Source: Clostridia bacterium
GTDB lineage: Bacteria > Bacillota > Clostridia > Oscillospirales > CAG-272
Length of the DNA stretch: 64,000 nt
NCBI GenBank assembly: GCA_900768535.1
Contig: CAAGDE010000001.1
Location: forward strand, 1,498-65,497
Direction of reading: 5' to 3'
In this document: positions 1-35,090 of the stretch, one piece after another
How positions within the stretch are numbered: position 1 is the first letter of the stretch
Layout of the letters: each line of letters begins with the position of its first letter
Position numbers and translations under genes: made by a program
Notes under the pieces: generated by a model
The model's database searches: none
Seen by the model: only the letters and a program-made list of their open reading frames with translations
Told to the model about the DNA's origin: nothing

Positions 1-364
1 AAAGCCGGAGCGGGTGGCGTTCAATCAGATTGTGGAGTATATTTCGGTCAATTTGCGCCTGGAGCAGCTGACGCCGGCATCCCTCTGTCTCACCTTTTAC
101 ATCAGCGAGCGGACGCTCTCCCGCATGTTTGCGAAGAATATCGGAATTTCGCCTGCAAAGTATATCATGCTGAAGCGGGTAGAGTTTTCCAAGCAGCTGC
201 TGTCCACAACGAAGTATACGGTGGAGGAAATTTCGGAAATGCTGCATTTCTCCGGCTCCCGACATTTTCGTCATGTGTTTACCGAATGCTACGGCATGCC
301 GCCGACCGAATGGAGACGGAAAAACCGCACCGAAGAAAAGAACCCTTACGCAGAACATATTTGA
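1..364 (+). CDS. AraC-family transcriptional regulator, C-terminal HTH part (5' end lies outside the window)
   Basis: Frame is open to the window edge. ISERTLSRMFAKNIGISPAKYIMLKRVEFSKQLL...FSGSRHFRHVFTECYGMPPTEWRR is a typical AraC/XylS double-HTH domain. Confidence 0.8.
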   Translation, partial: KPERVAFNQIVEYISVNLRLEQLTPASLCLTFYISERTLSRMFAKNIGISPAKYIMLKRVEFSKQLLSTTKYTVEEISEMLHFSGSRHFRHVFTECYGMPPTEWRRKNRTEEKNPYAEHI

Positions 365-461
365 CAAAAAAGGGTTTTTGAATTTGGAGATTGTCTACAA
401 AAATCAGCGGGAACTGTCCGAGAAGTGTATAGGATGCACCGCAAAATGACCGTCACAAGCC

Positions 462-490
462 TTGTCAGGGCTTCCCGAAAGAGATATAAT
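462..490 (+). promoter_or_regulatory. Candidate sigma-A promoter (TTGTCA-17 nt-TATAAT) about 200 nt upstream of the 689 gene
   Basis: TTGTCA at 462..467, 17-nt spacer, TATAAT at 485..490. Confidence 0.4.
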
Positions 491-688
491 TATACTGTAA
501 GCCGTTGCGGGTTTATTCGAGAACGGGCGAATGAATCTGGCAATCCCAAATGGGAGATCATGCGGAGTGCAGGGTGAAAAACGGCTGATCAACCATGTAT
601 CCGGTACATGGTGTTCAGCCTTTTTCCTTCAATTTTGACTGTTGCACCGAACGGTGGAGGCAGATAAATAAAGAAAAGGGGAAAAACG

Positions 689-3118
689 ATGAAACAATCC
701 AAACGCGCTTTATCCATGCTCTTGGCAATTCTGATGGCTCTGACAACCGGATTTTCCGCTATGCTGCCCGCTTTTGCGGAAGAGGGCAACGAGGCAAAGA
801 TCGGCGAGACCGAGTATGCAACGCTGGAGGCGGCAATCGATGCTGCCGGAGACGGAGCAACAATTACGCTTCTCCGGGATCTGACATGGTCGGTGAAGGA
901 AAAGAAGTTAGAGAAAGACCTTATCATCGACGGAGGAACGGAAAATCGCAAAATTACTTCTACGGTTGGCTATCTGTTTGATGTTAATCGTAATATCACA
1001 TTTAAAAATCTTAGACTGGATACAAAGAGTGGCTTCCGCTTTAAAAATACCGCCGGAAAGCCGTCGGTTGCAACTGTTGAAAATGTCGAATGGACACTTG
1101 GCAGCGGACTGTTAGTCAACATTCAGGGATCGGTTGCCGATGTTCCGCAGATTTTCAATGTGGTGAATTCCACAATCACCAAAACCGCCGTTTCCGGAGA
1201 CCCGATCATTGCAACCTATGGGGAAAACACCCGCGATATTACGATCAACATTGAAAACTCCACGCTGAATCAGAACGGGGGACAAACGAACGGTAATGTT
1301 GGTAATACCTCTATGTTCTTTTTCAACAAGGGGGCATCCGTGACCCTCAATCTGAAAGAGAACTCGGTACTGAAGTATAATCCGCTTGGAAAAATGAATG
1401 CTGTACAGTCTGTTGTGGTATATGCACGTCCCACCACAATCAACGCAGATGCTACCGTGGCTGTTCACCTGGTCGGCTCCGGTGCAGCAACCCCTTTAAA
1501 CTATTTCATGTTTAACACCGGGAGCGGCAAGCTGACTGTAAACGATGCCGGTGCCGCATGGAACGTCAGCGCTGCGATTGCGGAGCGCGGCTTCTATCTT
1601 CCTGCGTCCGGTAGCTATGATGTCAATGAAACACGCAAGGCACTTGTCTCTTCAAATTGCTTTGCAATCGGAACAGATGCACAGCCGCTGACCTATCGGA
1701 AATCTAAAAATACTTATACCAAAGCGGATCTGGTCGAAGCGGATTATGCGCTTTCCGGTTATACCCTGAAGATTGGCGAGACTCTGTATAATACATGGGA
1801 AGAAGCGCTTGCAGTTGGGGGCGAAATCGAACTGATTGCTAACGCACCGAACATCAGTGCACAGAAAAAACTTACAAAAGATGTTGTAATCGACGGACAG
1901 GGAAAATATATTTTCAGTTCGACTGCCTATTTCTTTGAGCTTGTCGGGCACAGCGCTACCTTCCGCAATCTTAATTTGAATGTCGTAAAGGGAATCGGAA
2001 CCGGTACAGGTGACGGCGCGGCGGTTCTGTTTGAAAACTGCAAAATTGATGTGACAGGCGGTTTGCTGCTGAACATCAAGGCGCAGACAAACGTTATCTT
2101 CCGGAATACGACCGTTGTTTCCACGGCGGCAGATGCGGCGATCCTGCTTAAAGACGGCGCGACATCTGAAATCAAGCTGATGAACTCTACCATCGATTAC
2201 CGGAAGGGCGGCAGCGGAGACATTACCTCCATCATCAACATCGCAAGCAAATCCAAGGGCACGGTTGTGCTCGATGGTACCTCGAAACTGATCTACAGCC
2301 CGAACAGTGCCGGGGCCTACAATCAGATCATTACGGTTCACGATGCAGAAACCGCCGCAACGGTTCATCTGAAGGCGGGTGCGGTGCTGGAGTACAACAC
2401 GGTTCCGAAAAGCACCACATCTCTTGCATTCCTGCGCAGCAATGCGAGTCTGACTCTTGTGGACGAGGGGGCAACGTGGAAGGTCAGCGCGGCGGTTGCT
2501 AAGAAAGGCTACAGCTTTGTGAACACCTCGGGGACCTTCAACTGCAAGACCGTTGCCATGAAAACGGCGGAAGGTAAGCTGTACAGCCCGACCGAGGTCA
2601 TCAAACTGACCGCCGCCACCGCATTTGTTCCGGTTACGATGGGCGTGACCAACGAGGCGGGCGCATCCATCCGGTTGGATCTTCCCACCGGAATCCGGTT
2701 CGGTACGCAGATTGATAAGACGTTCTATGAAACGCTTGGTGCGTCCGCAGTTTACGGTGTGAGAGTTGCCCGCAAGGATGTGCTGAAGAATGGCAATTTC
2801 GCTGCATTGACGGATGAAAATTCGGTTTCCTACACCTCCGCCCAAGAGGGCTTCCGTTGGGTGACCGAGGGTGAGTTCTTCCGCACGGTTCTGATGAACA
2901 TCAATGAAGCGAACTATCAGACCGAGTTGAGCTGGAGCGCATTTGTGACAGTCACCTATGAGGGCGGAAAGACCGCGACCTACTATGCAGACTACACCGA
3001 AGCGGACAACTGCCGCTCGCTGGCGCAGGTTGCATCCCGCGCTCTGCAGGACACCACCGTAACCTGGACGGCGGATGAAACCGCACTGCTGAAAACCATT
3101 GCCGGGATCAATGACTGA
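689..3118 (+). CDS. Secreted 809-aa protein with two tandem beta-helix-like modules and a C-terminal Ig-like module; function unknown
   Basis: Signal peptide MKQSKRALSMLLAILMALTTGFSAMLPAFA. Internal duplication (KIGETEYATLEAAIDAAGDGATITLLRDL...IIDGG versus KIGETLYNTWEEALAVGGEIELIAN...VIDGQG). RBS AAGGGGA upstream. Paralog at 7569..9131. Confidence 0.85.
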   Translation: MKQSKRALSMLLAILMALTTGFSAMLPAFAEEGNEAKIGETEYATLEAAIDAAGDGATITLLRDLTWSVKEKKLEKDLIIDGGTENRKITSTVGYLFDVNRNITFKNLRLDTKSGFRFKNTAGKPSVATVENVEWTLGSGLLVNIQGSVADVPQIFNVVNSTITKTAVSGDPIIATYGENTRDITINIENSTLNQNGGQTNGNVGNTSMFFFNKGASVTLNLKENSVLKYNPLGKMNAVQSVVVYARPTTINADATVAVHLVGSGAATPLNYFMFNTGSGKLTVNDAGAAWNVSAAIAERGFYLPASGSYDVNETRKALVSSNCFAIGTDAQPLTYRKSKNTYTKADLVEADYALSGYTLKIGETLYNTWEEALAVGGEIELIANAPNISAQKKLTKDVVIDGQGKYIFSSTAYFFELVGHSATFRNLNLNVVKGIGTGTGDGAAVLFENCKIDVTGGLLLNIKAQTNVIFRNTTVVSTAADAAILLKDGATSEIKLMNSTIDYRKGGSGDITSIINIASKSKGTVVLDGTSKLIYSPNSAGAYNQIITVHDAETAATVHLKAGAVLEYNTVPKSTTSLAFLRSNASLTLVDEGATWKVSAAVAKKGYSFVNTSGTFNCKTVAMKTAEGKLYSPTEVIKLTAATAFVPVTMGVTNEAGASIRLDLPTGIRFGTQIDKTFYETLGASAVYGVRVARKDVLKNGNFAALTDENSVSYTSAQEGFRWVTEGEFFRTVLMNINEANYQTELSWSAFVTVTYEGGKTATYYADYTEADNCRSLAQVASRALQDTTVTWTADETALLKTIAGIND

Positions 3119-3137
3119 ACCGGGGGAGGAGAAAATC

Positions 3138-3260
3138 ATGAAACACACTTATACAATGCCGCAGGCTGACCTGTTCTCCCTTTGCAAGGAGGATATCCTT
3201 TGCTCCTCAGGTGAAAACGATTTGGACGTCAGTAAGCTGTTTATCATTCAGGGGATCTGA
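3138..3260 (+). CDS. Mini-ORF, 40 aa (MKHTYTMPQADLFSLCKEDILCSSGENDLDVSKLFIIQGI); member of a 3-copy family in this window
   Basis: ATG 6 nt after GGAGGAG and 19 nt after the upstream stop. N-terminal motif shared with 26041..26151 and 33589..33717. Confidence 0.5.
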   Translation: MKHTYTMPQADLFSLCKEDILCSSGENDLDVSKLFIIQGI

Positions 3261-3275
3261 AGTAAGGGAGAAACG

Positions 3276-4115
3276 ATGACAATGGGAAATTTGATACAAC
3301 TTTGCACCGAGGCATCGCGGAAGGATGAGCCGTTCACCAAGGGGTCGTGGCCTGCCGCAGGGATGGGATATGTCTTTGTCACGGACGGCGGAAAACTGTT
3401 GGTGATCGACGGCGGTGAAACCGAGGGGGACGCGGAAATGCTCGTGTCCCTTCTGGAGAAAAAATACGGTGCGCACCCAGTGGTGGATCTTTGGATCCTC
3501 ACGCATTCGCACCTTGACCATTACGGTGCGCTGGAGATCATCGCCAAAACACCGTCGCTCCGGGAGCGCCTCACGGTGTCAAGGCTTTGCGCCTGCACCG
3601 ATATTCCGGTATCCTTTCCGGAGAATGACCAGGCGAGAATTGCGGCAATTCCGGGGTTGCTGGGCTGTGAACAGGTGACACCGCACGCAGGGGATGTGCT
3701 GACGGTGGATGACCTGACTGTCCGGATTCTGTACACCTGGGAGAACGACCCCAAGCTCGCCGATGCGAAATCGTTCAACCGCCTGTCCCTGATCTTCACG
3801 GTCACGGGCGCGGCGCACCGGGCAATGTTTGTCGGCGACTCCACACCGACAGGACCTACGGTTGTGCGCGACAGCACCGATCCGGCGCTCCTGAAAAGCG
3901 ACTTTCTGCAGCTGGCACACCATGGGATGGACGGCGGTAACATCGGCTTTTACCGCCTGGTCAATCCGGAAACCGTTCTGATTCCCTGCTCGCTGGGCGG
4001 CGCAAAGTTTATCAAAACCCCAGAGACCGGCTGCAACTATTTCAACCGGTATATTCAGGAGCGCGCGCTGAGCGTTGTCTGCGCCTGCATGGGCAATACG
4101 GAAATGGAATTCTGA
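3276..4115 (+). CDS. MBL-fold metallo-hydrolase, cytoplasmic
   Basis: HxHxDH motif (LTHSHLDHYGAL), later FVGD and LQLAHHG motifs. No signal peptide. RBS AGGGAGA. Confidence 0.85.
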   Translation: MTMGNLIQLCTEASRKDEPFTKGSWPAAGMGYVFVTDGGKLLVIDGGETEGDAEMLVSLLEKKYGAHPVVDLWILTHSHLDHYGALEIIAKTPSLRERLTVSRLCACTDIPVSFPENDQARIAAIPGLLGCEQVTPHAGDVLTVDDLTVRILYTWENDPKLADAKSFNRLSLIFTVTGAAHRAMFVGDSTPTGPTVVRDSTDPALLKSDFLQLAHHGMDGGNIGFYRLVNPETVLIPCSLGGAKFIKTPETGCNYFNRYIQERALSVVCACMGNTEMEF

Positions 4116-4145
4116 ACCGTCTTCAAAACAAGAAGGAGAAAAATA

Positions 4146-5708
4146 ATGAGAAAATTTCTGATCCTGCTGCTTGCCTGCCTGACCGTGTTGCCCTCGCTGG
4201 CTGCGTGCAACAAGCAGAACCACACCACACCGGGAACCGCCACCTCCGGAAATGCTTCCGGCACGCAAAGCCCCGCCGACACCGAGCCTGAGACCGATGA
4301 ATGGGGCAGAGTGATTGAACCGACCGACTTTGACGTTTCCGGGCTGGATTTCGGCGGGGAAAAGCTGACCGTGCTTTGTGCCGGGCACGATGAGAACGGC
4401 TATTGGGCAATGGATCCCGGGCTTTACAAGAAGCCGTCAGATGCCCTTGAAATGGCGCTCTACAAGCGCAATATGCAGATCGAGCAGGACCTTGGGCTGA
4501 CGCTCAAAGTGGCATATAAGCCTGCAAACGGCGCCTCCAGCGAGCTGAACAAGACCGTTGAGACCGATGCAAAATCAGGGCTGAACGAATATGACATCGT
4601 TGTCAACTATGCGGCATACGGTGTTGTGGAAAACCTGCGCGGCTACTACATGGACCTGCTTGCCGCCGACACGCCGCACCTGCAGCTGGATAAGCCCTGG
4701 TACAACCAGAACTTTATCGAGAACACCCAGGCGTTCGGGCATCTGTATTACATCATCGGGGACTATAACCTCTGTGCCTACAACCGGCTGATGGCAACCT
4801 ACTTCAACCGCACGCTTTGCGCGGCGTATGAGTTGATTCCGGACGACAGCGGAGATGCGCTGTACGATCTGGTTCAGGAAAAAAAGTGGACCTATAGCCG
4901 GCTGTTTGAGTTTGCAAAGTTCTCCCATGATCTCAACGGAAACGGGGAGAAGGACGCGGGCGATATTTACGGTCTGCTTTCCAATGCGGGTTGCGAAGGG
5001 TACGACGGGTTCCTCTACGCCTTCAATCTGGACCTGACCGTGACCAACGATGACGGCACGCACGAATGGAACGTAAACAACAATCAGAAGATGACCGATG
5101 CAATGGAAAAGCTGATCAGCCTGTGGCGCCAGGACGGCGTTTGGATGGTCGGAAAAACGCCCAACTCCGGCTCCACCTCGCAGGACCAATACAAGATGTT
5201 CGCCGACGGCCATGCACTCTTTGATATTGACGTCATCTACCGCTATGCCGCGCAGAACAAGGCATTTCGCGCGATGAAGGACAAATACGGTCTGCTCCCG
5301 CTGCCGAAGTATGATGAGGAGCAGAAAAACTACGGATCCGGCGCACAGGATTCCTACGGAATGACCAGCATTATGAAGGGGAGCGAGGAACTGAACGCCC
5401 GTCGCTGTGCATATTTGGAGTATGCAAACTACCTCAGCTACCAGAACTCCCGCCCCTACTACTTTGAGAAGATCATGAAGGCGCAGTACCTCGGCACGGC
5501 AAAGGCATCGCAGGTTTTCGACATCATTCTTGCCCATGCGGACTTCGACTTTGGCGAGCAGTATTCGGTTGCGCTGGAAGGTGCAAAGAAGCTGCTTTGG
5601 AGATACGTTGCCAAGAATGAGGAGACCGTCTCCGGTGCTTGGGCGACCAACGAAAAGCTGCTGACCAAGAAGCTGCAGGATCTGGATGCCTGGTTCCTGG
5701 CGCAGTAA
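4146..5708 (+). CDS. Extracellular solute-binding lipoprotein (ABC-type sugar SBP, about 520 aa class)
   Basis: Lipobox LPSLAAC. Length and sequence resemble the SBPs at 35091..36620 and 63554.., and the fragment at 38636..39250. RBS AAGGAGA. Confidence 0.85.
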   Translation: MRKFLILLLACLTVLPSLAACNKQNHTTPGTATSGNASGTQSPADTEPETDEWGRVIEPTDFDVSGLDFGGEKLTVLCAGHDENGYWAMDPGLYKKPSDALEMALYKRNMQIEQDLGLTLKVAYKPANGASSELNKTVETDAKSGLNEYDIVVNYAAYGVVENLRGYYMDLLAADTPHLQLDKPWYNQNFIENTQAFGHLYYIIGDYNLCAYNRLMATYFNRTLCAAYELIPDDSGDALYDLVQEKKWTYSRLFEFAKFSHDLNGNGEKDAGDIYGLLSNAGCEGYDGFLYAFNLDLTVTNDDGTHEWNVNNNQKMTDAMEKLISLWRQDGVWMVGKTPNSGSTSQDQYKMFADGHALFDIDVIYRYAAQNKAFRAMKDKYGLLPLPKYDEEQKNYGSGAQDSYGMTSIMKGSEELNARRCAYLEYANYLSYQNSRPYYFEKIMKAQYLGTAKASQVFDIILAHADFDFGEQYSVALEGAKKLLWRYVAKNEETVSGAWATNEKLLTKKLQDLDAWFLAQ

Positions 5709-5718
5709 GCGGGTACAG

Positions 5719-7572
5719 ATGGATATGAACAAAATCAAATATGCAGTGCTCTGGCTGTTGATGCTTTCCATGGCGCTGCCGTTCTCTGCCTGCGTGGGCA
5801 ATCTGCCCGCCCCGACACAGTCGGAGGAGTCCCCCGGCTCGGAATCCGCTCCCCCGGGTTCCGGAACGGCTGAGCCGGTCGCGGACACCCGCTTTCCTGT
5901 CGTAAAGGATGGGAAAGCGGTTCCGGTCGTCTATCCGATGGACGATCTGGACGCGATGGGGTATGCAAAAACGGTTGCGAATAAGATCAAAAGCCTGACC
6001 GGCGCCGATGCGGAATTCCGCGAGGACAGCCGCCGTGTGGACGAGGCGCCGGACACCGAAAGCTACGAAATTCTCATCGGTTCGGTCGACAATCCGGTCT
6101 GCGAAACGGTCCGGGCGCGCATTCCGTACGGCGGCGCGCTGATTGCGGTTGAAGGGCACAAACTCTGCGTGCTGGCAATGGACCCGGATCTCCTCGGCAA
6201 AGCCGCGCTCAAGCTGCTGGCGACGCTGACGTCTGCCTGCGACAAGGACACAAAGGAGATTCTGCTTGCCGGGGATCTGTCGGTCGTCATCGAGGGAACA
6301 GACCTGCTTTCGATGGTCCCGGCGTTCGAAGGAAAAACGCCTGCCGGAACCTATGAAAGCACCGCCAATGCGATGCAGGTGCTGTTCCGGGACGTGACCG
6401 AGGCAGAAGCGGACGCATATCAATCCAAGGTTCTTTCTGCCGGTTACAGTCTCTATTCCGGCGATCAGACGACCGGAAAAACGAAGGACGCCAAGAACCG
6501 GTTCCTGACCTTCCGGCGCGACCGCTATATTCTGACGCTTCTCTACACGCCAAGTGACCGCATCCTGCGCGTGCTGATTGAGACCTCCGACACCACGGCA
6601 CTCGGCTGGCGGGCAGAGGATCAGACCCCGGTGGAGAAGGTCTGCGACGTCACGTTGACGCAGGTCGGTCTGCTTTACGATGTCGGCAGTTTCAACGGTA
6701 TGTGCTACGTGATGCGGCTGGAGGACGGCAGCTTCATCGTCACCGATGGCGGTCATGCCCTGCAGAAGAATGCCGACCGGCTCTATCGGATTCTGCGCAA
6801 GCAGGCGCCGGACCCTGACCGCATCGTGATTGCGGCGTGGATCTTCTCGCATTCGCACGGAGACCACATCGGAATGTTCCCGTATTTCACCGCGTCCTAT
6901 GCCGACCGCGTGACGGTTGAGCGGTTTATCTACAACTTCCCGACTGCCCGGCAGATTACCGGGGACAACACCGCCGCAGGAAACGGCAGGGTGACCAATC
7001 AGGTCGGGCACTACCGGGGTGCAGCCGTCACCAACGCACACCCCGGGCAGGTGATGCTGATTCACGGCGCGAAAATTCGGATTCTCTACACGGCAGACCT
7101 GTTTGTGCCGCAGGAGATCTCCTACAGCAACACCGCCAGTATGTGCTGGACCGTTGAAGCAGGAGGCGTGAAGACCATGATGATGGGCGACCTCGGCGCA
7201 GAGGTGGCATCGGTGATGGAGGCGATTTACAGCGATGACGTCTTCGCTGCCGATGTGCTCCAGGTGGCGCATCACGGAATCAGCTCCTCGCCGAGCACCC
7301 TCTATCCGAAGGTGAATCCCGCCTGGGCGCTGATACCGCTGGGCACCGGTCCGCTCTCGTCGTGTGAGTACGCGGAGGACTGTATCAAATTTGTCAATGC
7401 CGCGCATAACCGCTTCTTCTTTACATCCGAAAAATGCAGGGAGCATGTGTATGTTGCCAATGACGACATTCTGATTCTGACCTTCCGCAACGGGCAGGTT
7501 GCGGATTCCCGTTTGTACGATACCGATTCCAGTTATCTGGATTCCGACACAGAAAGGAGTGCAATGCAATGA
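5719..7572 (+). CDS. Secreted (lipobox FSAC) two-part protein: N-terminal alpha/beta module plus C-terminal MBL-fold hydrolase
   Basis: MDMNKIKYAVLWLLMLSMALPFSAC. C-terminal FSHSHGDHIGMF (HxHxDH) and LQVAHHGI, paralogous to 3276..4115. Start 5719 or 5725 is uncertain. Confidence 0.8.
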   Translation: MDMNKIKYAVLWLLMLSMALPFSACVGNLPAPTQSEESPGSESAPPGSGTAEPVADTRFPVVKDGKAVPVVYPMDDLDAMGYAKTVANKIKSLTGADAEFREDSRRVDEAPDTESYEILIGSVDNPVCETVRARIPYGGALIAVEGHKLCVLAMDPDLLGKAALKLLATLTSACDKDTKEILLAGDLSVVIEGTDLLSMVPAFEGKTPAGTYESTANAMQVLFRDVTEAEADAYQSKVLSAGYSLYSGDQTTGKTKDAKNRFLTFRRDRYILTLLYTPSDRILRVLIETSDTTALGWRAEDQTPVEKVCDVTLTQVGLLYDVGSFNGMCYVMRLEDGSFIVTDGGHALQKNADRLYRILRKQAPDPDRIVIAAWIFSHSHGDHIGMFPYFTASYADRVTVERFIYNFPTARQITGDNTAAGNGRVTNQVGHYRGAAVTNAHPGQVMLIHGAKIRILYTADLFVPQEISYSNTASMCWTVEAGGVKTMMMGDLGAEVASVMEAIYSDDVFAADVLQVAHHGISSSPSTLYPKVNPAWALIPLGTGPLSSCEYAEDCIKFVNAAHNRFFFTSEKCREHVYVANDDILILTFRNGQVADSRLYDTDSSYLDSDTERSAMQ

Positions 7573-9131
7573 ACCGGAAGAATAGACGGTGCGTATCCCT
7601 GCTTCTTGCCCTCTGCATGATGCTGGTCTGCGCTTTGGTACCGGGGGCAGGTGCCGAGGACGCAGGAAACGAGGCAAGGATCGGCGAGACCGAGTATGCA
7701 ACGCTGGGAGAGGCGATTGATGCCTCAAAGGATGGAGACACCATCACGGTCCTGCGGGATCTGACCCTGACCGCAATCAACAAGGAAATCTATAAGAATA
7801 TCACCATCGACGGCGGCGAATCCAAGTATACGGTCAGAGCGACCGGCGGGTATACCTTCCAGTTCTGCGACAGCTTCACGCTGAAAAATCTGAAGCTGGA
7901 TACGCAGAACGGGTTCCGCTTCTGGAACACCAGCCGGAACGGGCGGGAGGCGGTCGTCGGAACGCTGGAGAATGTGGAATGGACGGTCGGCAAAGGGCTG
8001 TTTGTCAATCTGCAGGGCGAAAAGTCGGGCATTCCGCAAACCTTGAACATGATTCGCTCGACCGTTACCAAAACGGCGGTCGCGGGGGACCCCATCATCG
8101 CAACCTACAACAAGGGCGGCAGCGATATTATGATCAACATAGAGGACAGTGTGCTGAACCAGAACGGCGGGCAGACGAACGCCCACACGGGAAACAAGTC
8201 GATGCTCTTCTTCTATCAAAAGGGCAATGTGACGCTGAATGTGAAGGGCAACAGCGCCCTGAATTATACGCCGCTCGGGAAAGCGGATTCCGTGCAGTCG
8301 CTGGCGGTCATCGGCTCCGCAACGGTGACGGTGAATCTTGAGAACACGGTGCGGCTGCATCTTGCGGAATCGGAAAACGCAACGGATAAGCACGGATTTC
8401 TCTACAAGGACGGGAGCGGGACCGCGACAGTGAACGATGCGGGCGCGGTCTGGAGCGCCACCCGCGCCGTTGCGGCAGAGGGGATCCTGAAGCCGAATTT
8501 TGACACCTACAACGGCGAAACAACGATCCGCTGGAGCCTGAAGGACGGCGACCGGCTCGTCTCTGCCGGCTCGGAGTCTCCCTTCCGCTATGCGGCGACC
8601 TCGGAGACGGTTTTGTGCCGCTTTTCGACCTATACCTACCGGCAGGAGGATCTCGTGATGAATGCCGGTGCCGCCATCCGCACCGAGGCGCCCAATGCGA
8701 TGCAGATTTCCGGTGCAATCACGAAAACGCTTTCCGATTACCTTGCGGAGGTCGGGTATAACGTCACCTACGAACTGTTCCTCGTCAAAAAAGCCGACCT
8801 TGAAGCAACCAAGCTCGGCGGCGAGACCTACAATCTGCACCTGCTCGGCGGGCGGGACAAGAAGCAGGTCAACCGGATCTATTGGAGCGAGAGTGAGGAT
8901 GGCAAGACGCTCCTGTTCCGGGGCTGTGTTTACGGTCTGGACGCAGAGGTGGAATACGTGATGGTTGCCGCTGTGACCTTCCTGTTCGGCGAGGAGGAGA
9001 TGCTGTACCATTCCGGGATCGTGGAGGCAGACCACGTGCGCTCGGTCAGGGACATTGCAGCCCGGGCACTCAAGGACGCGGAATATGCCGATAACGCCTA
9101 TCTGAAATCGCTTGTCTCCGGTGCAACCTGA
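7569..9131 (+). CDS. Secreted 520-aa beta-helix-like protein, single-module paralog of 689..3118
   Basis: ATGA start/stop overlap with the upstream gene. Signal peptide. ARIGETEYATLGEAIDASKDGDTITVLRDL...TIDGG aligns with the 689 protein along its length. Confidence 0.85.
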   Translation: MNRKNRRCVSLLLALCMMLVCALVPGAGAEDAGNEARIGETEYATLGEAIDASKDGDTITVLRDLTLTAINKEIYKNITIDGGESKYTVRATGGYTFQFCDSFTLKNLKLDTQNGFRFWNTSRNGREAVVGTLENVEWTVGKGLFVNLQGEKSGIPQTLNMIRSTVTKTAVAGDPIIATYNKGGSDIMINIEDSVLNQNGGQTNAHTGNKSMLFFYQKGNVTLNVKGNSALNYTPLGKADSVQSLAVIGSATVTVNLENTVRLHLAESENATDKHGFLYKDGSGTATVNDAGAVWSATRAVAAEGILKPNFDTYNGETTIRWSLKDGDRLVSAGSESPFRYAATSETVLCRFSTYTYRQEDLVMNAGAAIRTEAPNAMQISGAITKTLSDYLAEVGYNVTYELFLVKKADLEATKLGGETYNLHLLGGRDKKQVNRIYWSESEDGKTLLFRGCVYGLDAEVEYVMVAAVTFLFGEEEMLYHSGIVEADHVRSVRDIAARALKDAEYADNAYLKSLVSGAT

Positions 9132-9156
9132 ATCGGAGCGGAAAGAAGGGTATCTT

Positions 9157-9390
9157 ATGAAATACATCAAACCGATCCTGTTGATCCTGTTCCTGCTTGC
9201 ATTCCTGCTTACCGCGGTTTCCTGCACCGATGCCGGTGAGGATACGCCCGGTACTTCGGCTCCGACCGGGGCCGAGCAGACCGCGCAATTCTCCGAAACG
9301 GATTCCGGCAACGTTACCGAAGCGCCGACACAGCCCAACACGGACTATGACGGAATGGACACCGACGATAAATGGACCAAGCCGTACTGA
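9157..9390 (+). CDS. Small (77 aa) Thr/Pro/Glu-rich lipoprotein
   Basis: MKYIKPILLILFLLAFLLTAVSC lipobox. RBS GAAAGAAGGG. Paralog at 30903..31139 shares the TEAPT[QE]P..TD..DG..W tail. Confidence 0.6.
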   Translation: MKYIKPILLILFLLAFLLTAVSCTDAGEDTPGTSAPTGAEQTAQFSETDSGNVTEAPTQPNTDYDGMDTDDKWTKPY

Positions 9391-9438
9391 CCTGCAGGTT
9401 CTGCGGCGACACCGATGAGAAAGGGAAAAGAGAAGAGA

Positions 9439-11171: not shown

Positions 11172-11856
11172 CGGCGCTATGAAACAAACGGAAACCAAAG
11201 AACCCATCCGGGCGTGTCTGTTCGATCTGGACGGTGTGCTGGTATTCACCGACCGCTATCACTATCTGGCGTGGAAATCCGTTGCGGATGAAAACGGCTG
11301 GGATTTCAATGAAACGGTCAACCTCCGGCTTCGCGGCATTCCGCGCCAGGAATCCCTGAACGAAATTCTGAAATACAATCACATTGAGCTTGCGGACGCC
11401 GAAAAGGCACGTCTGGCAGACCTGAAAAATGCCCGCTACGTGCAAATGCTGCAGGGAATTGGGGAGAACGATGCCTATCCGGGCGCCTTTGCCCTGATTC
11501 GGACGCTGCGAAACCGGGGCATCCGGATTGCACTCTGCTCCTCGAGTAAGAATGCCGGGCTTGTGCTGGAAAGGCTGGGCGTCCGGGACCTGTTTGACGC
11601 GATCGTCACGGGCAATGACATCCGGCGTGCAAAGCCGGACCCCGAAATCTTTCTCACCGCCGCAACCCGGCTTGGGGTCCCGCCGTCCGCCTGTGTGGTC
11701 TTTGAGGATTCCCTGGCGGGCATTCAGGGGGCAATTGCCGCAGGTATGCAAACGGTTGGCGTTGGAAACCGCGCGGAGCTTGGCGGCGTGGCTGCCTGCT
11801 GCCTGGATTCCTATGCGGAACTCGACCCGGATACCCTCCGGCTCCGGGAAGTGTGA
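11164..11856 (+). CDS. pgmB: Beta-phosphoglucomutase (HAD superfamily)
   Basis: DxDG nucleophile motif in LFDLDGVLVFTD, then RLRGIPRQESLNEIL, SSSKNA, and FEDSLAGIQGAIAAGM. Alternative start at 11179. Confidence 0.8.
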   Translation: MTDGAMKQTETKEPIRACLFDLDGVLVFTDRYHYLAWKSVADENGWDFNETVNLRLRGIPRQESLNEILKYNHIELADAEKARLADLKNARYVQMLQGIGENDAYPGAFALIRTLRNRGIRIALCSSSKNAGLVLERLGVRDLFDAIVTGNDIRRAKPDPEIFLTAATRLGVPPSACVVFEDSLAGIQGAIAAGMQTVGVGNRAELGGVAACCLDSYAELDPDTLRLREV

Positions 11857-11872
11857 GGCAGGGAAGAAACAA

Positions 11873-22800: not shown

Positions 22801-23664
22801 GACGCAACAAAGGAGGTTCACGGCGAATATCAGCCCTACGAATTCAACATTGACACCACCACCGCAATGGCGATGAACCTGACTGCTCTGCCGGATGAAA
22901 CCGGTATCCGTCTGACGTGGAATCAGGACGACTACGCAACGCTGATGGGCTACAACCTCTACCGTTGCGACACGAAGAACGGCAACTATGTGCGCATCAA
23001 TCCCTCGGTTCTGCTGGCAAGCGAGGAGAGCTTCCTTGACACCAACGCCGAGCCGGGCAAGACCTACTGGTACACCTTTACCGTGGTGCTCTCCGACTTC
23101 AGCGAAACCGCGCCCGCCGGCAGAGTGTCGGCAACCGCGTTGGATACTCTGGCGCCCTCGCTTTACCACACGCCGGTCAATCAGGGGTACCTGGGCAACA
23201 ACCTGGTCATTTCCTGCACGGCAAGCGACAATGTTTCCGTTTCTGCGGTGACGCTGTTCTTCCGCGCCAAGGGAACGACCGAATGGACGGCGCGCACCAT
23301 GTCCCGCGTCAACGACAAATACAGCGCCACGGTGTTCGGCAGTGAGCTGACCGCCGACGGGCTGGAATACTACATCCTCGCCAGCGACGGCAGAAACAAC
23401 GTTGCAAAGGGGAGCGAGGAAGCCCCGTATCAGGTGGTCGTCAAGGATGCATCCCTCATCTCCCGCCTGGGTGATGTGGACGGGGACGGCGTCATTTCCG
23501 CCAAGGACGCGCTGATGATTCTGCAGCACATCGGCGGCGAGGTTCTGCTGACGGACGACCAGTTCCGCCGCGCCGACCTCAACAGCGACGGGGAACTCTC
23601 CGCCGTGGAAGCGCTCCGCATCCTGCAATTCATCAACGGTAAGGTCACAAGCCTTGCCATGTGA
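19840..23664 (+). CDS. Secreted subtilisin-family (S8) serine peptidase with propeptide, beta-helix-like insert, FN3-like module and C-terminal dockerin
   Basis: Signal peptide with possible lipobox LGSC. Catalytic triad motifs VAVIDTGVDYSHPDL, HGTHVAGIV and GTSMAAPTVSG. The dockerin is at the C-terminus. RBS TAGGAGG. Confidence 0.9.
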   Translation: MLKQTKWLAVLLAAVLMLGSCAQVGGAVLAARVGMPAGAGEVAAQPETAPGLSASAADEPAGEYREGTVLVKYDGEMTDHILDQLGLVSAERLWSGSEWYTVTVGETRNTRETVAYLRELGCFAQVDYDYIMKGDGEVTSVDVSSNPEYTKQEGYLDTLGVGKAWNYIRSLGKHPGGSADVVVAVIDTGVDYSHPDLQNNIWINSGEIPGNGIDDDGNGYVDDVYGWNFVGGNNDPMDDNGHGTHVAGIVAMENNAVGGVGVAYNSKVMVLKAGNSSGYFNNSDIAEAIQYAYMNGASVINMSFGGSMISLAVEEALQMAYTSCVLVAAAGNAGLCNQPGCPVHFNARASYPAALPYVIGVMSCDATGTVESGFSNFDHYPFNSVEYEIYAPGEGICSTWPGNRYATLNGTSMAAPTVSGIVALLRTVYADREKYSTKFIQSQLINTTEFCADALHALTDSPKPSVKLYDCRIDDSTDISPKNNGNGVMDAGETVRLYVSLQNRGGVASNVQVTLDTLRMSGQSDPYFTLLKDRVVLSDIGTYSVREAEGEQYFEIEIHADCPNDYLTDFNLHFTYSNGMIATDETVFSGEGTARFNVSSGYHLPAVINEDTVFEATQRYIVGEDVVIPEGVTVTFKEGCEIQFYDDREYYNSPQFIVYGTLNLLGTKEKMVTVKPSEKYAAFGCPMMAKSGGIIRIDYAEIVNYLFSSSVCDFYKTNIDISNSILRRVADEEDYFPHNRLFSKGAIVYGYTYNSSWSFTANSITSSKIECADYGVEFHINEACNNYFLVASDLCGLKISRKFAGNIVRSFNKTDDSKCSSSIGGTVIDNYFVSYDDSDPNTLLQLNISNATTFENNTFSAGYQKYASQVIENYIGSDGKPKYDLTGSCSDISALYPHITDVAIFNKGKEQVTTIGKEPITVRVTFNRAMDTTKTVYATFGTRDPYGDYRIDGKFVSDTVWEGTYTLKAYIENGLQKLIVHGACAAEDATKEVHGEYQPYEFNIDTTTAMAMNLTALPDETGIRLTWNQDDYATLMGYNLYRCDTKNGNYVRINPSVLLASEESFLDTNAEPGKTYWYTFTVVLSDFSETAPAGRVSATALDTLAPSLYHTPVNQGYLGNNLVISCTASDNVSVSAVTLFFRAKGTTEWTARTMSRVNDKYSATVFGSELTADGLEYYILASDGRNNVAKGSEEAPYQVVVKDASLISRLGDVDGDGVISAKDALMILQHIGGEVLLTDDQFRRADLNSDGELSAVEALRILQFINGKVTSLAM
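23470..23655 (+). other. Dockerin module (two EF-hand-like Ca-binding repeats)
   Basis: GDVDGDGVISAKDALMILQHI ... ADLNSDGELSAVEALRILQFINGK. Confidence 0.8.
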
Positions 23665-23675
23665 GGGACGGACGT

Positions 23676-26039
23676 ATGCAACGCAAACACAACCGGGTGT
23701 TGTCCCGCCTGACTGCCATCGTCTGCGCGCTCTGCCTGTGCCTGCTCTCCCTGCCGGCTTTTGCCGAGGGGGAGAGCGGACGGCGGATCACCGTATCCAC
23801 CGCGCAGACCGTCCGGCAGGGGAGCGGCAGCTACTGTACGGTCTCCGTCGATTCGCTGGGCACGCTCGCCTCGCTGGAGCTGACGGTCCATTTTGACCCC
23901 GCCACCGTGCAGGTGAGCGAGGGAAACCTCTATAACGAAGCCACTGCCTGCAGGCTCTATGACTCCCACGTCACGGACGGCGAAATCCGCCTGACCTACC
24001 TGTTTGACGGAAACGGGGCAGAAGGCGCGCAGAATCTCTTTTCCTTCTTCTATTCCGTCCCGGCAGACGCCCCGGTGGGCATGACCGGCTTTGACGTGAC
24101 GGTCGGCGAGGCGCTGGACGGCTCCCTGAATGCCCTGCCGGTCTCCGGCTCGCGCTGCAGCTTTGCGGTGGAAGCCTATGTGGCGCCGGACGTGACTTAT
24201 CTGTACGATTACGGCGCGGTCACCACGTCCGTCCGGCAGGAATTCACCCTGCGCTACGAGCTGGCGGACGCGAATGTGGTGTCCGGCTCCGCAGTGTTGG
24301 GGTATGACCCGGAATTGTTCGAGCCGGTGACGGTGACGTGCGGCGGTCTGCTGGAAGGCAAGCTGACCGACATCAACCAATCGCTTGCAGGGTCGGTCTA
24401 CCTCTCCTTTGCCGGCACCGCCTGCAACGGGAGCAATGATCTATTGTCCGTCACCTTCCGCACGCGCCGCAACCGCGCGGAGACGGCAGACCTGACGATG
24501 ACGGTCAAAGAGCTGTTCCGGCTGAACGGAGCCGCCGTGACCTGCCCGCCGCTGACCACGCGCGTGACCGTGGCGCATGACCCGGATTACGCTGAGGACG
24601 CGCCCGCCATGCAGCTTCACGCCGCCTATTCCGAGGCTGACCGACAGCTGACCGCGCGGATTGCGCTGGATGCGGAGTCCCACCTCGGCGCGGGCGATTT
24701 TGTCCTGCGGTTTGACCCGGAGCGGCTGGTTTTCCTGCGCGCCGGGCAGAAGCTGAAAGCGGATTTCCTCATTATCAACGATAAAAACGCCGCGGCGGGC
24801 GAGGTGAAATTCTCGGTGTTGTCCACGTCGGATCTTGTGGCGGCGGGGGACGTGCTGGAGGTGGTTTTCTCCGTCCCGCACGCCTGCGAAACGCTTCCCG
24901 CCATCCCGCTGACCCTTGAAGGAAAGAATCTTTCCGATTCGCTGACCAAACCGATTCTCCTGAACTTCATCGGTACCGAGGCAAAGCTCACCGGGCACAC
25001 GCCGGGCGCCCCGGTCACCGACCCGAACGGCGATTATCGCTACACGTCCTGCACCGAATGCGGCGCCGAGACCGCGCGGGAGTGGCTCTGCGAGGAGGCG
25101 CTGGCGTTTGCGGCGCACTTCTGCTCCTTCCACAACAATCTGACGCTCAATTACTATCTGGACGCATCGGTGGCTGCGCAGTACGGCAATCTCCGCCTGG
25201 TGCTGGAGCAGGACGTCTGGAGTCGTGACGGCACCAAAACGGTTGCACACACCGAGCTGACCGGCGTCCCGGTCGAACGGAGCGGAGTGCAGTACCTGAA
25301 ATTCAGCTTTTCCGGCATCGCCGCTGCACAGCTGAGCAGTGACATCCGTGCAAGACTGTATGCCGAAAAGGACGGCGCGGAGTGCCACGGGCGGCTGGAC
25401 ACCTACAATCTGAAGACCTATGCCTACAATCGTTTGGAGGCAAGCGAGGACACGGCATTCCGCACGCTGATGGTGAATCTTCTCAACTATTGCACGGCGG
25501 CACAGGTATATTTCGGCATCCGCACCGATGCACCCGTCAACGCGGAGCTGACCGAGGAGCAACGCGCGCCGGCAAGCGGAACCCCGACCGTTTCGGGCAT
25601 TGCCGGGCTGACCGAACAGGACGGTGCCGCGGCGGAATTCGTCGGGCATTCGGTCCTGTTCAACAGCAACGTTGTGCTGAAATCCTACTTCCGGCTGGAT
25701 GGCGTGGAGGACAAAAGCAACGTCACTCTGCGCGTAAAGGTCGCGGACGCGGACGGAACGACCGTTTACACGCTGCCGTTTGATGCGTTCGGCTATGACC
25801 CGGAAACCGGAAGGTACAACGCCAAGCTGGACACGCTTGCGGCACCGCAGTTCCGGAGCAGACTGGAGCTGACGGTCATGAACGGCGAAACCGCAATCAG
25901 CGGAACCTATACGTACAGCATCGAAACCTATGTGGCAAACCGGCTGTCCGGCTCGACCGACGGAAATTTCCGCGCACTGCTGGTCGCCATGATGCAGTAT
26001 TCCGACGCCGCGCGTGCTTATCTTGGGAAAGGAAACTGA
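23676..26039 (+). CDS. Secreted protein with three cohesin-like modules and two C-terminal repeats of an unknown module (scaffoldin-like)
   Basis: Signal peptide ...LLSLPAFA. Start ATG 23676 lies 7 nt after GAGGGA, which overlaps the protease stop codon. Cohesin-like pattern in each module (ELTVHFDPATVQV, AVLGYDPELFEPV, FVLRFDPERLVFL). Confidence 0.7.
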   Translation: MQRKHNRVLSRLTAIVCALCLCLLSLPAFAEGESGRRITVSTAQTVRQGSGSYCTVSVDSLGTLASLELTVHFDPATVQVSEGNLYNEATACRLYDSHVTDGEIRLTYLFDGNGAEGAQNLFSFFYSVPADAPVGMTGFDVTVGEALDGSLNALPVSGSRCSFAVEAYVAPDVTYLYDYGAVTTSVRQEFTLRYELADANVVSGSAVLGYDPELFEPVTVTCGGLLEGKLTDINQSLAGSVYLSFAGTACNGSNDLLSVTFRTRRNRAETADLTMTVKELFRLNGAAVTCPPLTTRVTVAHDPDYAEDAPAMQLHAAYSEADRQLTARIALDAESHLGAGDFVLRFDPERLVFLRAGQKLKADFLIINDKNAAAGEVKFSVLSTSDLVAAGDVLEVVFSVPHACETLPAIPLTLEGKNLSDSLTKPILLNFIGTEAKLTGHTPGAPVTDPNGDYRYTSCTECGAETAREWLCEEALAFAAHFCSFHNNLTLNYYLDASVAAQYGNLRLVLEQDVWSRDGTKTVAHTELTGVPVERSGVQYLKFSFSGIAAAQLSSDIRARLYAEKDGAECHGRLDTYNLKTYAYNRLEASEDTAFRTLMVNLLNYCTAAQVYFGIRTDAPVNAELTEEQRAPASGTPTVSGIAGLTEQDGAAAEFVGHSVLFNSNVVLKSYFRLDGVEDKSNVTLRVKVADADGTTVYTLPFDAFGYDPETGRYNAKLDTLAAPQFRSRLELTVMNGETAISGTYTYSIETYVANRLSGSTDGNFRALLVAMMQYSDAARAYLGKGN
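23781..24986 (+). other. Three tandem cohesin-like modules (approximately 23781..24173, 24195..24572 and 24609..24986)
   Basis: Each module is about 125-130 aa with x-V-x-V....L-x-V-x-[FY]-D-P-x-x-[VL] followed by G-x-[IV]-x-[LF]-[ST]-[YF]. Assigned by pattern, not by search. Confidence 0.55.
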
Positions 26040-26040: not shown

Positions 26041-26151
26041 ATGAAACAGATCTATCAAACACCCGCCGCACTGTTGCCGGCAGGGGAAGATCTCATCCGA
26101 ACCAGCGATCCGTATGAAGGAGAACTGGATCCGGCGAACCTGAACAAATGA
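26041..26151 (+). CDS. Mini-ORF, 36 aa (MKQIYQTPAALLPAGEDLIRTSDPYEGELDPANLNK); family copy 2
   Basis: ATG lies 1 nt after the cohesin-like gene's TGA. AAAGGA is 7 nt upstream. A terminator follows directly. Confidence 0.45.
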   Translation: MKQIYQTPAALLPAGEDLIRTSDPYEGELDPANLNK

Positions 26152-26166: not shown

Positions 26167-26201
26167 GGAGCGGCAGACAGATTTCTGTCGCTCCCGTTTT
26201 T
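26167..26201 (+). terminator. Rho-independent terminator closing the S8/cohesin/mini-ORF operon
   Basis: GGAGCGGCAGA pairs with TCTGTCGCTCC (one mismatch), followed by CGTTTTTG. Confidence 0.65.
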
Positions 26202-26243
26202 GTGTTCGGTTGTTTGAATATTCCGCTACGGAAAAAGAACGGC

Positions 26244-33588: not shown

Positions 33589-33717
33589 TCAGTAGCTTTC
33601 GCCGTCACCGTATCCGTTTCCGTCAACGCTCAGCTGTCCGCCGGCTTCCGATGTCCGTACAATGTCTCCGTCTGCCAGCCGGATGTACCGTGCCGTCGGT
33701 GTTTCATAGCTTTTCAT
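33589..33717 (-). CDS. Mini-ORF, 42 aa (MKSYETPTARYIRLADGDIVRTSEAGGQLSVDGNGYGDGESY); family copy 3
   Basis: ATG 33717 is preceded by GGGAGGAAAC and lies 29 nt after the upstream stop. Its stop is 7 nt before the GH31 ATG at 33581. Confidence 0.5.
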   Translation of the reverse strand: MKSYETPTARYIRLADGDIVRTSEAGGQLSVDGNGYGDGESY

Positions 33718-33746
33718 GATGTGTTTCCTCCCGTAAAGTATGATTT

Positions 33747-35051
33747 TTATACTGCCGGAGCCTGTGCGATCAGTACGCCGGCACGGTAGATGACCGTATA
33801 GGCAGTGCCGGCGGTCCGGACTCCGCCCTTTTCGAACCACGGAGTGACCGTAAAGGTCGCGGTACCGACCGCATCCGGGATTCCCGTGATCGAGTAAGCC
33901 ATCAGATATCTGCCGCCGAGCGCCTCGGCATTGACCAGCACCGTACTGCTGTCGGCGGCGGTTGCCAGAAGCCCGGTATAGACCGTGTTCAGCGCACGGC
34001 CGTAGGTCTTGGCGGATACACTGCCGGCTTCGTAGACTGCGTCAATGGTGAATCCGACCGCGCTGTAGTCCGTCGAATCCACGGTTGCAATGAACCGGAC
34101 GCCGAAGCTGCCGTCGGCGGTACGGCTTTCCTGACAGCCGCGATAGACCACGCCCGTACCGGCGGTTCCGTCCGTGTCAAGATGCGCGTTCCGCGTGGTG
34201 ACCGTAATGTTGGTAAACTGCACGTCCCAGCGGTCCGCATTGGATTCATAGTAAAACATCACCGGCGCGTCCGCCCACTGACCGTAGGAGACCGCAATCA
34301 GATCATCGTCCACATAGCTTTCGATCTTTGCCGTGCAGGTCCTGCCGTCTGCCGTGTAGGTTCCCTTTGTGCAGGTGACCGAAACGTAGACGGACTTATT
34401 TCTTGCCGGTTTGGTGGTCATCGCCGCGCAGTCCGCATCGGTGCGGATACCGTTTTCCAGTGTGTAAGCGGCATACGTGCCGAATGCATTTCCGGTAAAG
34501 CCGGTGAAGCTGAAATTGTCGTATCCGTTGAAATACCGGATGCCGTCCGCTTCCGTTGCTGCATTGTAGAACAGCGCCAGCCCGAATGCGCCGCCGGTCG
34601 GTTTGTACTGACGCTCGATATAGGAGACGGTAAACTGATCCAGCCCCGTCATTGCGGCGGTGGGAACCACGGTCAGAAATCCTTTTCCGGCGTTCGGTTC
34701 CGCTTCGTTACTCATCGAGAACAAATTTTTTGAGGTGGTTTCTCCGGCGTGTTTTCCCTGCAGACTCAGTTTCTTTGATGTTACTTCAAACTGCTTTCCG
34801 TCCATATTCGGAAAATCCGTGTAGCCCGAACCGACGATTTTCTGATCGTAGAGATTGTCCAGCGGTGTTTTTCCGTCCAGGGTGTGCGCGGTGTCATTGC
34901 CGGCGGTGAGATCAGCCAGCTTTTTACCCACATGATCCTCCGAATACACCGTGCGGGTATCGGGATTGTAGACGGGCTCCGCCCCTGCGGGAAGGGCAAA
35001 CAGCGGAACGGCTAACGCGAGAATGAGAAGCAGGGTAACAAATCGTTTCAT
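33747..35051 (-). CDS. Secreted 434-aa protein: shared N-terminal module plus C-terminal Ig-like module; function unknown
   Basis: Signal peptide MKRFVTLLLILALAVPLFALPAGA. GGAGGA RBS. Paralogous to the N-terminal half of 28685..30889. Confidence 0.8.
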   Translation of the reverse strand: MKRFVTLLLILALAVPLFALPAGAEPVYNPDTRTVYSEDHVGKKLADLTAGNDTAHTLDGKTPLDNLYDQKIVGSGYTDFPNMDGKQFEVTSKKLSLQGKHAGETTSKNLFSMSNEAEPNAGKGFLTVVPTAAMTGLDQFTVSYIERQYKPTGGAFGLALFYNAATEADGIRYFNGYDNFSFTGFTGNAFGTYAAYTLENGIRTDADCAAMTTKPARNKSVYVSVTCTKGTYTADGRTCTAKIESYVDDDLIAVSYGQWADAPVMFYYESNADRWDVQFTNITVTTRNAHLDTDGTAGTGVVYRGCQESRTADGSFGVRFIATVDSTDYSAVGFTIDAVYEAGSVSAKTYGRALNTVYTGLLATAADSSTVLVNAEALGGRYLMAYSITGIPDAVGTATFTVTPWFEKGGVRTAGTAYTVIYRAGVLIAQAPAV

Positions 35052-35090
35052 GTTGGTTTCCTCCGTTTTTTTACAGAAATTCATGTTGGA

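Follow-up and report, generated by a model that had tools for sequence, protein, structure and literature searches.

Three short open reading frames (ORFs) in the DNA stretch studied here (64,000 nucleotides of a Clostridia bacterium, contig CAAGDE010000001.1; "the window" denotes this whole stretch) each lie directly behind the gene of a large secreted protein. We propose that each of them, termed here pep1, pep2 and pep3, is an LppA-like precursor of a Clostridial branch of LPP-type RiPPs (peptides made by ribosomes and modified after translation), processed in trans, and we consider this reading probable. The 'linear polyphosphorylated peptides' (LPPs), encoded by lppA-K-B-S-D-N, were described for Paenibacillus alginolyticus and other Bacilli (Popov et al., Nat Commun 2026, PMC13381572). 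What is new is a Clostridial branch with a leader of its own, orphan precursors in many copies and a previously unreported pairing with secreted-protein genes. The three ORFs with their predicted parts are:

3138..3260, + strand: pep1, putative LppA-like precursor, 40 aa
3138-3209, + strand: predicted leader of pep1 (aa 1-24), ending ...EDILCSS
3210-3257, + strand: predicted core of pep1, GENDLDVSKLFIIQGI
3125..3131, + strand: Shine-Dalgarno site GGAGGAG of pep1, 6 nt before the ATG, kept at the orthologous locus
26041..26151, + strand: pep2, putative LppA-like precursor, 36 aa
26041-26106, + strand: predicted leader of pep2 (aa 1-22), ending ...EDLIRTS
26107-26148, + strand: predicted core of pep2, DPYEGELDPANLNK
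26028..26033, + strand: Shine-Dalgarno-like site AAAGGA of pep2, 7 nt upstream, within the end of the cohesin gene
33589..33717, - strand: pep3, putative LppA-like precursor, 42 aa
33717-33649, - strand: predicted leader of pep3 (aa 1-23), ending ...GDIVRTS
33648-33592, - strand: predicted core of pep3, EAGGQLSVDGNGYGDGESY
33726..33732, - strand: Shine-Dalgarno site GGGAGGA of pep3, 8 nt upstream

The coordinates and translations that an earlier note on this DNA had given for the three ORFs were all recovered, and pep3, as it had said, is concealed by a spurious ORF of greater length: it occupies the end of a stop-to-stop segment of 150 codons. Its further observation that each ORF has a Shine-Dalgarno site of its own and begins 1-29 nt behind a gene for a signal-peptide protein also held: pep1 starts 19 nt past the TGA (3116-3118) of an 809-aa gene, pep2 1 nt past the TGA (26037-26039) of a cohesin gene, and pep3 29 nt past the TAA (33749-33747) of a 434-aa gene, and all three upstream proteins have signal-peptide-like N-termini. 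The peptides themselves lack a signal peptide. An alternative in-frame ATG of pep1 lies 27 nt further 5' (window 3111-3137), overlapping the stop of the 809-aa gene, and yields a 49-aa form chosen by some gene callers (P0004-P0006, P0008); we favour the ATG at 3138 because of the family consensus and the position of the Shine-Dalgarno site. Pfam and NCBIfam scans of pep1-3 matched no model, and an Rfam scan of the whole window revealed no element. All three peptides carry a Y-x-x-P motif (Y5/P8 in pep1 and pep2, Y4/P7 in pep3) and an invariant Ser located 19, 17 and 19 residues past the Tyr in pep1, pep2 and pep3, respectively.

That pep1-3 are coding is supported by several lines of evidence. 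In the six frames of the window, the loosened motif Y..P.{6,12}D[ILV][ILV].[TSA]S occurs exactly three times, always at the starts of pep1-3, whereas shuffles lead one to expect 0.01-0.05 matches; the shared motif, for which the earlier note had named such a control, is thus better than chance. It has to be noted that the loosened motif was defined post hoc, the evidence from hidden Markov models (HMMs), orthologues and dN/dS (the ratio of nonsynonymous to synonymous substitution rates) being independent of its definition. Close and more distant orthologues of pep1-3 are called in other assemblies. Those of pep1, e.g. MKHTYTKPLADLLSIGTDDVIRTSGENENDLDVSKLFVI, are found in a fully syntenic operon of a related species, in the order AraC, exoprotein, peptide, MBL-fold (metallo-beta-lactamase) protein, 520, 617, 520, 77, AP_endonuc_2, GDPD, HAD, MFS. 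In a DNA alignment with an orthologous locus, the frame is kept through an in-frame 6-nt indel and the Shine-Dalgarno site is conserved. The dN/dS of pep1 is 0.13, similar to the 0.08-0.22 of the flanking genes, which answers the question of codon-level conservation. The common N-terminal motif reported earlier stands, and the description of the tails as divergent needs refinement, since the tails too are conserved among orthologues (ENDLDVSKLF in pep1, EGELDP in pep2, QL[SN]V[DE]G[NS]GYGD in pep3).

Chance ORFs with a chance motif, as one might suspect from their very short length and the missing Pfam and NCBIfam models, are refuted by the motif counts, a family of hundreds of members, synteny and purifying selection, and can practically be dismissed. 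The earlier note had also offered a translational-coupling device; in this case, or in that of regulatory upstream ORFs, translation would matter and not the product. Such a role is very unlikely to be the explanation: the protein sequence is conserved in hundreds of unrelated DNA contexts, the dN/dS is low, no Rfam element was found, and what comes behind pep2 is a terminator instead of a gene, although all three ORFs start near the preceding stop and 12-15 nt separate the ends of pep1 and pep3 from the gene that follows (MBL-fold protein, GH31). Real, conserved and functionally linked small proteins, as originally claimed, are what the orthologues, the in-frame indel, the dN/dS value and the family-wide exoprotein pairing described below argue for.

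The three peptides are part of a large family of small proteins. Among 1.84 billion representative proteins, a profile built from seven window-type peptides had 42 matches at E<=1e-3, nearly all of them 34-60 aa long with an MK-x2-Y-x2-P...(E)D[VI][IL]x[TS]S N-terminus, followed by a short, variable, acidic/Gly/Pro-rich tail; the family consensus reads MK-x2-Y-x2-P-x9-(E)D[VI][IL]x[TS]S. With an enlarged alignment, a word-indexed search listed 116 proteins at E<=10, whose 'mainstream' consensus is MKETYEAPEMEIIEFETEDVITTSG. A degenerate DNA pattern, applied to one genome per GTDB species, retrieved at least 120 loci, with several metagenome-assembled genomes (MAGs) contributing more than one contig. 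About 115 of the 120 loci listed are bona fide short family ORFs (28-72 aa), and the hosts, among the matches listed, are almost all Clostridia (Oscillospiraceae, Ruminococcus, Lachnospiraceae and others). The homologues in relatives on which the earlier note had made its proposal depend are therefore present as a large family across the Clostridia. Family-wide, conservation peaks at D-[VI]-[IL]-x-T-S. No PDB chain matched the family profile; a literature search with the motif strings FETEDVI, EDVITTS and EDVIRTS returned no relevant paper, and searches on ScmC and on RRE-Finder plus HPr kinase returned nothing relevant.

This family is linked, in both directions of search, to a five-gene maturation cassette that encodes an HprK-like kinase, a PqqD-type RiPP recognition element (RRE), a signal-peptidase-I-like Ser/His/Asp peptidase, an MsbA-like exporter and a nucleoside triphosphate (NTP) transferase. 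When starting from the peptides, we found cassette genes in 21 of the 120 loci listed (each at most 8 kb), compared with a chance expectation that we estimate at about 0.5 in 120 (one ~5-kb cassette per 3-Mb genome). The genes recur in the order peptide, (small protein), kinase, RRE, peptidase, ATP-binding cassette (ABC) exporter, NTP transferase, i.e. K-B-S-D-N. When starting from the kinase (80 metagenome loci), we had 54 loci with enough upstream sequence, of which 32 have a family peptide at a distance of up to 4 kb; both strands were searched, and every peptide found was on the kinase strand. For example, a contig of the Negativibacillus massiliensis type (L009) has the order peptide, HprK-like kinase, PqqD, S26-like peptidase, ABC, NTP_transf_5. 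Its kinase is HprK-related (precomputed PF27840, ScmC; weak TIGR04249/TIGR04355), the PqqD protein matches the lasso RRE models NF033530 and NF033536, the peptidase of 156 aa is signal-peptidase-I-like, and the nucleotidyltransferase belongs to PF14907. The same set of kinase, PqqD protein and peptidase is present in L011. In 45 peptidase sequences, including those of the published clusters 1, 4, 9 and 20, the motifs GxSMxP (S32), HR (H71) and GD (D86) are invariant; the cassette peptidases match TIGR02228 weakly. About 80% of the family copies (loci listed) are located far from any cassette.

Some loci depart from this simple arrangement. Directly upstream of its kinase, L170 has a tandem array of five precursor genes whose cores differ (5131-5890). 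In P0021 (77 aa), two leader-core units are naturally fused. A radical SAM enzyme is added in twelve of the kinase-first loci, where the precursors have Cys-rich cores; in L192 (6063-8093), and also in L166, L178, L180 and L196, a 676-aa radical SAM protein is encoded between kinase and RRE. The precursors of this sub-class, with their Cys-rich cores, have the leader MEKYTKAQMEVIEFEAEDVITTS in common, and a second chemistry seems to draw on this leader platform here.

We assigned pep1-3 to the Clostridial family with a broad HMM, whose seed consisted of 44 cassette-adjacent peptides of other genomes and contained none from the window. Among 1575 window segments, pep1-3 were the top three, with E-values at Z=1e6 of 1.1, 8.2 and 120, the next segment having 840; rescaled to the window, these correspond to about 0.0017, 0.013 and 0.19, and about 1.3 for the next segment. 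After one HMM iteration all three were significant (E at Z=1e6 of 2e-5 for pep1, 0.002 for pep3 and 0.099 for pep2). Conversely, the window-type profile retrieved mainstream members from the 1.84-billion-protein library at E<1e-3. Peptides of the window-like form ...D[IV][IV]RTS adjoin cassettes in L009, L055, L072 and L037.

In the Bacilli, LppA (35-200 aa) has the conserved N-terminus YxxPxVLxHQxIxFETxxS and a variable C-terminus; LppB is a discrete RRE that is bound by Y-16 and P-13 of LppA, and the Tyr form of the leader motif is the one selected by LPP RREs (PMC13381572). LppS, an SpI-like (signal peptidase I) Ser/His/Asp peptidase, cleaves a leader presented by the RRE behind T-1 and needs F-3/E-2/T-1 to do so, the HprK-like kinase LppK transfers several phosphates onto S3, LppD exports the peptide, and for LppN no activity was detectable when a heterologous host was used; what LPPs do biologically is unknown (PMC13381572). 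The text of that paper mentions neither Clostridia nor orphan precursors nor secreted proteins. Its Supplementary Data 1 does hold Ruminococcus and Lachnospiraceae peptidases, in clusters 4, 9 and 20.

The gene content of the Clostridial cassette is the same as that of lppKBSDN: five enzyme types in the same order, with an archaeal-type leader peptidase and a PF14907 NTP transferase in both and no macrolactam synthetase in either system. As LPP peptidases are required to be, those of the family cassettes are SpI-like with a Ser/His/Asp triad and lack a membrane-anchored N-terminus. Both systems have short precursors with a conserved YxxP N-terminus, a hypervariable C-terminus and a conserved Ser about 18 residues past the Tyr (17-19 in the window peptides, 18 for S3 of LppA). 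Precursors in or next to lppK-B-S-D-N, a further hallmark of LPPs, are seen for the family as a whole and not in the window. The earlier note had recognised no RiPP class in the three peptides. This view has to be revised, as the conserved N-terminus is a RiPP leader with the YxxP motif bound by PqqD-type RREs and the family is tied to a cassette of the lppKBSDN type.

There are also clear differences. The hosts are Clostridia instead of Bacilli, and the enzymes do not fall into the LPP clade: cassette peptidases and RREs match best the sequence similarity network (SSN) clusters 9 and 20, left unclassified by the LPP authors (E 9e-25 to 1e-12), compared with only 2e-5 for cluster 1. The Clostridial leader reads Y-x2-P-x-h-E-h-h-x-[FL]-x2-(E)D[VI][IL]x[TS]S, and the full LPP consensus is not present in pep1-3. 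Unlike LPP precursors, which lie in capsule loci, the Clostridial ones occur many times per genome, mostly far from the cassette and directly behind secreted-protein genes, and some of their sub-clusters add the radical SAM enzyme and Cys-rich cores, unlike LPP systems.

Several observations weigh against assigning the window peptides to an LPP-type system. When all cassette proteins were searched by tblastn, the 64-kb window yielded no kinase, RRE, S26-like peptidase or partner exporter. Clusters 4, 9 and 20 are labelled 'RRE others', with LPP RRE = 0 and precursors 'ND' (PMC13381572). Bacilli LppA aligns with the Clostridial HMM only over MKxxYxxP and IxFET, at about 3 bits; because the alignment covers only these short pieces, it is mainly the common enzyme set that supports homology between the two families of precursors. 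With an HMM narrowed to 24 mainstream cassette-adjacent peptides, the window peptides score poorly (pep1 E 0.71, pep2 7), and pep3 is outside its top 12. Finally, the window peptides diverge from the mainstream family and have no F-E-T triplet at -3 to -1, a requirement of the peptidase in Bacilli.

According to our proposal, the first ~22-24 residues would act as leader, and Y-x-x-P would dock as a beta-strand onto an LppB-like RRE of the PqqD type. The RRE would present the peptide to the HprK-like kinase for serine phosphorylation, with the invariant Ser of ...D[VI][IL]x[TS]S as the best candidate for the acceptor, and also to the cytoplasmic signal-peptidase-I-like peptidase for removal of the leader. 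The short, acidic and variable core would then be exported by the MsbA-like ABC pump and may be further decorated by the NTP transferase. Since no cassette lies in the window, the three copies are orphans, presumably served in trans; we infer a cassette elsewhere in this genome, one enzyme set of which would serve many dispersed substrates. Each precursor would share its transcript with the Sec-exported protein whose gene precedes it, and the two would probably be translated in step.

As to the cleavage site, mainstream Clostridial members read FETEDVITTS, with FET three residues nearer to the Tyr than in Bacilli, and the window peptides read ...SLCKEDILCSS, ...PAGEDLIRTS and ...LADGDIVRTS. 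HMMER aligns I-x-F-E-T of the Bacilli with I-x-F-E-T of the Clostridia, which would put EDVIxTS at the start of the core. There are thus two candidate sites, one after the FET-equivalent position and the other at ...x-T|S; the Bacilli site is not transferable because LppA aligns with the Clostridial HMM over short pieces only.

Such a layout would be comparable to that of the prochlorosins (ProcA/ProcM) and of other RiPP systems in which a single enzyme set serves many dispersed precursors; they combine a conserved leader, hypervariable cores and many scattered precursor genes with one maturation system. The prochlorosins stand apart in their lanthionine chemistry and in an unrelated leader family, and their precursors are not known to be paired with secreted-protein genes.

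A different RiPP class suggested by the RREs is that of true lasso-peptide precursors, with cyclase and B2 protease encoded elsewhere. Similar leaders are found in lasso peptides of Firmicutes, MKAWNTPVIETLEINETAA|GG being an example (PMC7533575), and besides the matches to the lasso PqqD models, a comparison of the cassette RRE with the PDB retrieved only the lasso RRE TbiB1 (E 0.0035) and not the LppB entry 9x8z. The recurrent neighbours in 80 kinase loci and 19 cassette loci, however, include neither an asparagine-synthetase-like cyclase nor a transglutaminase-like B2, a serine peptidase being present in the cassette instead. Among the 30 long window ORFs scanned against Pfam, none belonged to the Asn_synthase family. 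Many cores lack the Gly/Ala/Ser/Cys1...Asp/Glu7-9 ring pattern: with the cleavage site placed behind ...TS, pep2's core has Asp as its first residue, and family cores of 5-9 residues, of which there are many, are too short for it; where the core begins depends on the site assumed. In addition, the Tyr motif form is the one that LPP RREs select. We thus give lasso precursors very little weight. Paeninodin-type phosphorylated lasso peptides of Firmicutes do share with the Clostridial system a leader that carries [Y/W]xxP and depends on an RRE, an HprK-like kinase acting on a precursor Ser (a prediction in the Clostridial case), a PF14907 nucleotidyltransferase and an ABC exporter; the Clostridial cassette differs by having a serine leader peptidase in place of lasso cyclase and cysteine protease B2, and its product is expected to be linear.

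The position of the precursors directly behind genes of Sec-exported proteins is a family-wide feature that has not been reported before. In the window, the genes and the domain concerned are:

689..3118, + strand: 809-aa Sec-type exoprotein upstream of pep1, with internal duplication and beta-sandwich C-terminus, no Pfam match
23661..26039, + strand: cohesin-domain exoprotein upstream of pep2 (listed GTG start at 23661; the ATG at codon 6 is probably the true start)
25074..26027, + strand: domain X of the cohesin protein (aa 472-789, E 8e-55)
33747..35084, - strand: 434/445-aa Sec-type exoprotein upstream of pep3

Among 120 listed family peptides for which 400 nt or more of upstream sequence was available, 92 are preceded within 60 nt by the end of a same-strand ORF, with a modal gap of 14-20 nt. 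By a crude hydrophobicity rule, 43 of the 51 complete upstream ORFs are signal-peptide-like, versus 175 of 429 other ORFs at the same loci (odds ratio 7.8, p 3e-9). The arrangement noticed in the window is thus no coincidence. A fusion of the peptide to the upstream protein by read-through or frameshift was considered and rejected, as the gaps range from -4 to 55 nt and show no frame preference.

The upstream exoproteins are very diverse, both in length (84 to more than 2100 aa) and in their N-terminal domains. A two-repeat domain of ~280 aa, called here domain X, is nevertheless common to the C-termini of about half of them; it ends a few residues before the stop and had no credible match in Pfam or PDB. 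Each repeat comprises a beta-sandwich followed by helices ending in ...LVKALYxYxxAAxxY. Domain X forms the C-termini of about 48 upstream proteins in L014-L133, always at the very end of large secreted Clostridial proteins; a single-sequence AlphaFold model (pLDDT 46) was too poor to use. Core motifs of the E[LT][PED] type (NELPII, NDLPPMPIE, GELDP) occur in 25 of 42 peptides behind domain-X proteins and in 20 of 89 others (odds ratio 5, p 6e-5), a test in which the motif was chosen post hoc and phylogeny is ignored.

A few matches of the DNA pattern are on contigs binned as Prevotella, Alistipes and other Bacteroidota MAGs (L015, L018, L022, L039, L082 and L086). Two of these (L015 and L082) are true family members on Clostridial-looking DNA with domain X and cassette, for which mis-binning is likely; the others are chance matches.

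Behind the peptide, at least 19 family loci (L082:3306-3773, oriented; L129, L093, L095, L038, L011:1826-, L048, L090, L101, L124 and others) encode a membrane-anchored 'stalk' protein of 138-260 aa, a lipoprotein or N-terminal transmembrane protein with a long Ser/Thr/Glu-rich linker. Its extreme C-terminus, (I/V/L)ELPF(V/I)P(V/A)x, falls into one motif class with many cores of the peptides (NELPII, IELPIIPVK, ETPFVPFSGN). In L111, the C-terminus of the lipoprotein is nearly identical to the core of the next peptide; over all, the similarity of peptide and stalk C-terminus within the same locus was no better than in shuffled pairings. The window contains no stalk protein.

In another reading, the peptides would be stand-alone small proteins that act directly with the upstream exoprotein, e.g. 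as its ligand or by helping it to fold or be secreted. No RiPP-type processing would then take place in this organism, and the N-terminus that looks like a leader would be a relic or a binding module. The very strong family-wide coupling to secreted-protein genes, the many copies far from a cassette, its absence from the window, and the core sequence types that track the type of upstream protein would all fit. What makes this alternative improbable, though the most serious one, is that the region for RRE binding and cleavage is the most conserved part, needlessly so across copies beside very different exoproteins, and that a peptide with neither signal peptide nor dedicated exporter would stay in the cytoplasm while its partner is secreted; moreover, the scans from both sides tie the family to the cassette. 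One of the roles first suggested for the mini-ORFs, that of a chaperone or partner of the exoprotein, is left only as something that the mature peptide might do.

Under LPP-type processing, the pairing with secreted proteins suggests, as a speculation, a role at the cell surface. LPP-like cores in gut and rumen Clostridia might be dedicated partners of cell-surface proteins and not free antibiotics or signals, an idea we hold only tentatively and think rather unlikely as it stands; it was raised because domain X ends about half of the exoproteins and the stalk proteins found in many loci share their ELPF[VI]P-type ending with many peptide cores. The exported phosphorylated core may then be the cognate ligand or wall-attached anchor of the upstream exoprotein, i.e. 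part of a RiPP-based surface display or tethering. If true, this would be the first function for the LPP class, and the exoprotein pairing is in any case a concrete lead to the function of LPP-type peptides.

LPPs were described only in 2026 and from Bacilli; the window reveals a sister system in gut Clostridia. Its precursor genes have multiplied (three in 64 kb here, hundreds of variants in public data) and become detached from their enzymes. As there is no Pfam or NCBIfam model and most of the peptides are uncalled, genome annotation misses this whole gene class, and RiPP mining restricted to the neighbourhood of enzymes would miss most of the substrates.

pep1 and pep3 are located in AraC-associated catabolic operons, between exoprotein gene(s) and genes of cytoplasmic enzymes (MBL-fold, GH31, EEP-family). 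The pep1 operon (window 14-13099) is a conserved 12-gene operon of unknown function; it contains AraC, the 809-aa exoprotein, pep1, an MBL-fold protein of 279 aa, proteins of 520, 628 (MBL) and 520 aa, AP_endonuc_2, GDPD, HAD and MFS, and is syntenic in a related species (L003-L008), where the exoprotein has 506 to 819 aa. pep2 closes an S8 protease/cohesin operon, as concluded from the strong terminator 16 nt downstream:

26167..26204, + strand: intrinsic terminator, 11-bp stem and T-run, 16 nt past pep2

In this operon (window 19774-26039), the S8 subtilase (1296 aa) carries a type I dockerin at its C-terminus; its gene overlaps that of the following cohesin-domain protein by 4 nt, and the two proteins possibly form a self-contained protease-scaffold pair. 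Behind the pep2 terminator and before an MFS transporter gene, a perfect sigma-70 consensus promoter (window 26244-26272) consists of TTGACA, a 17-nt spacer and TATAAT, with a TG extension.

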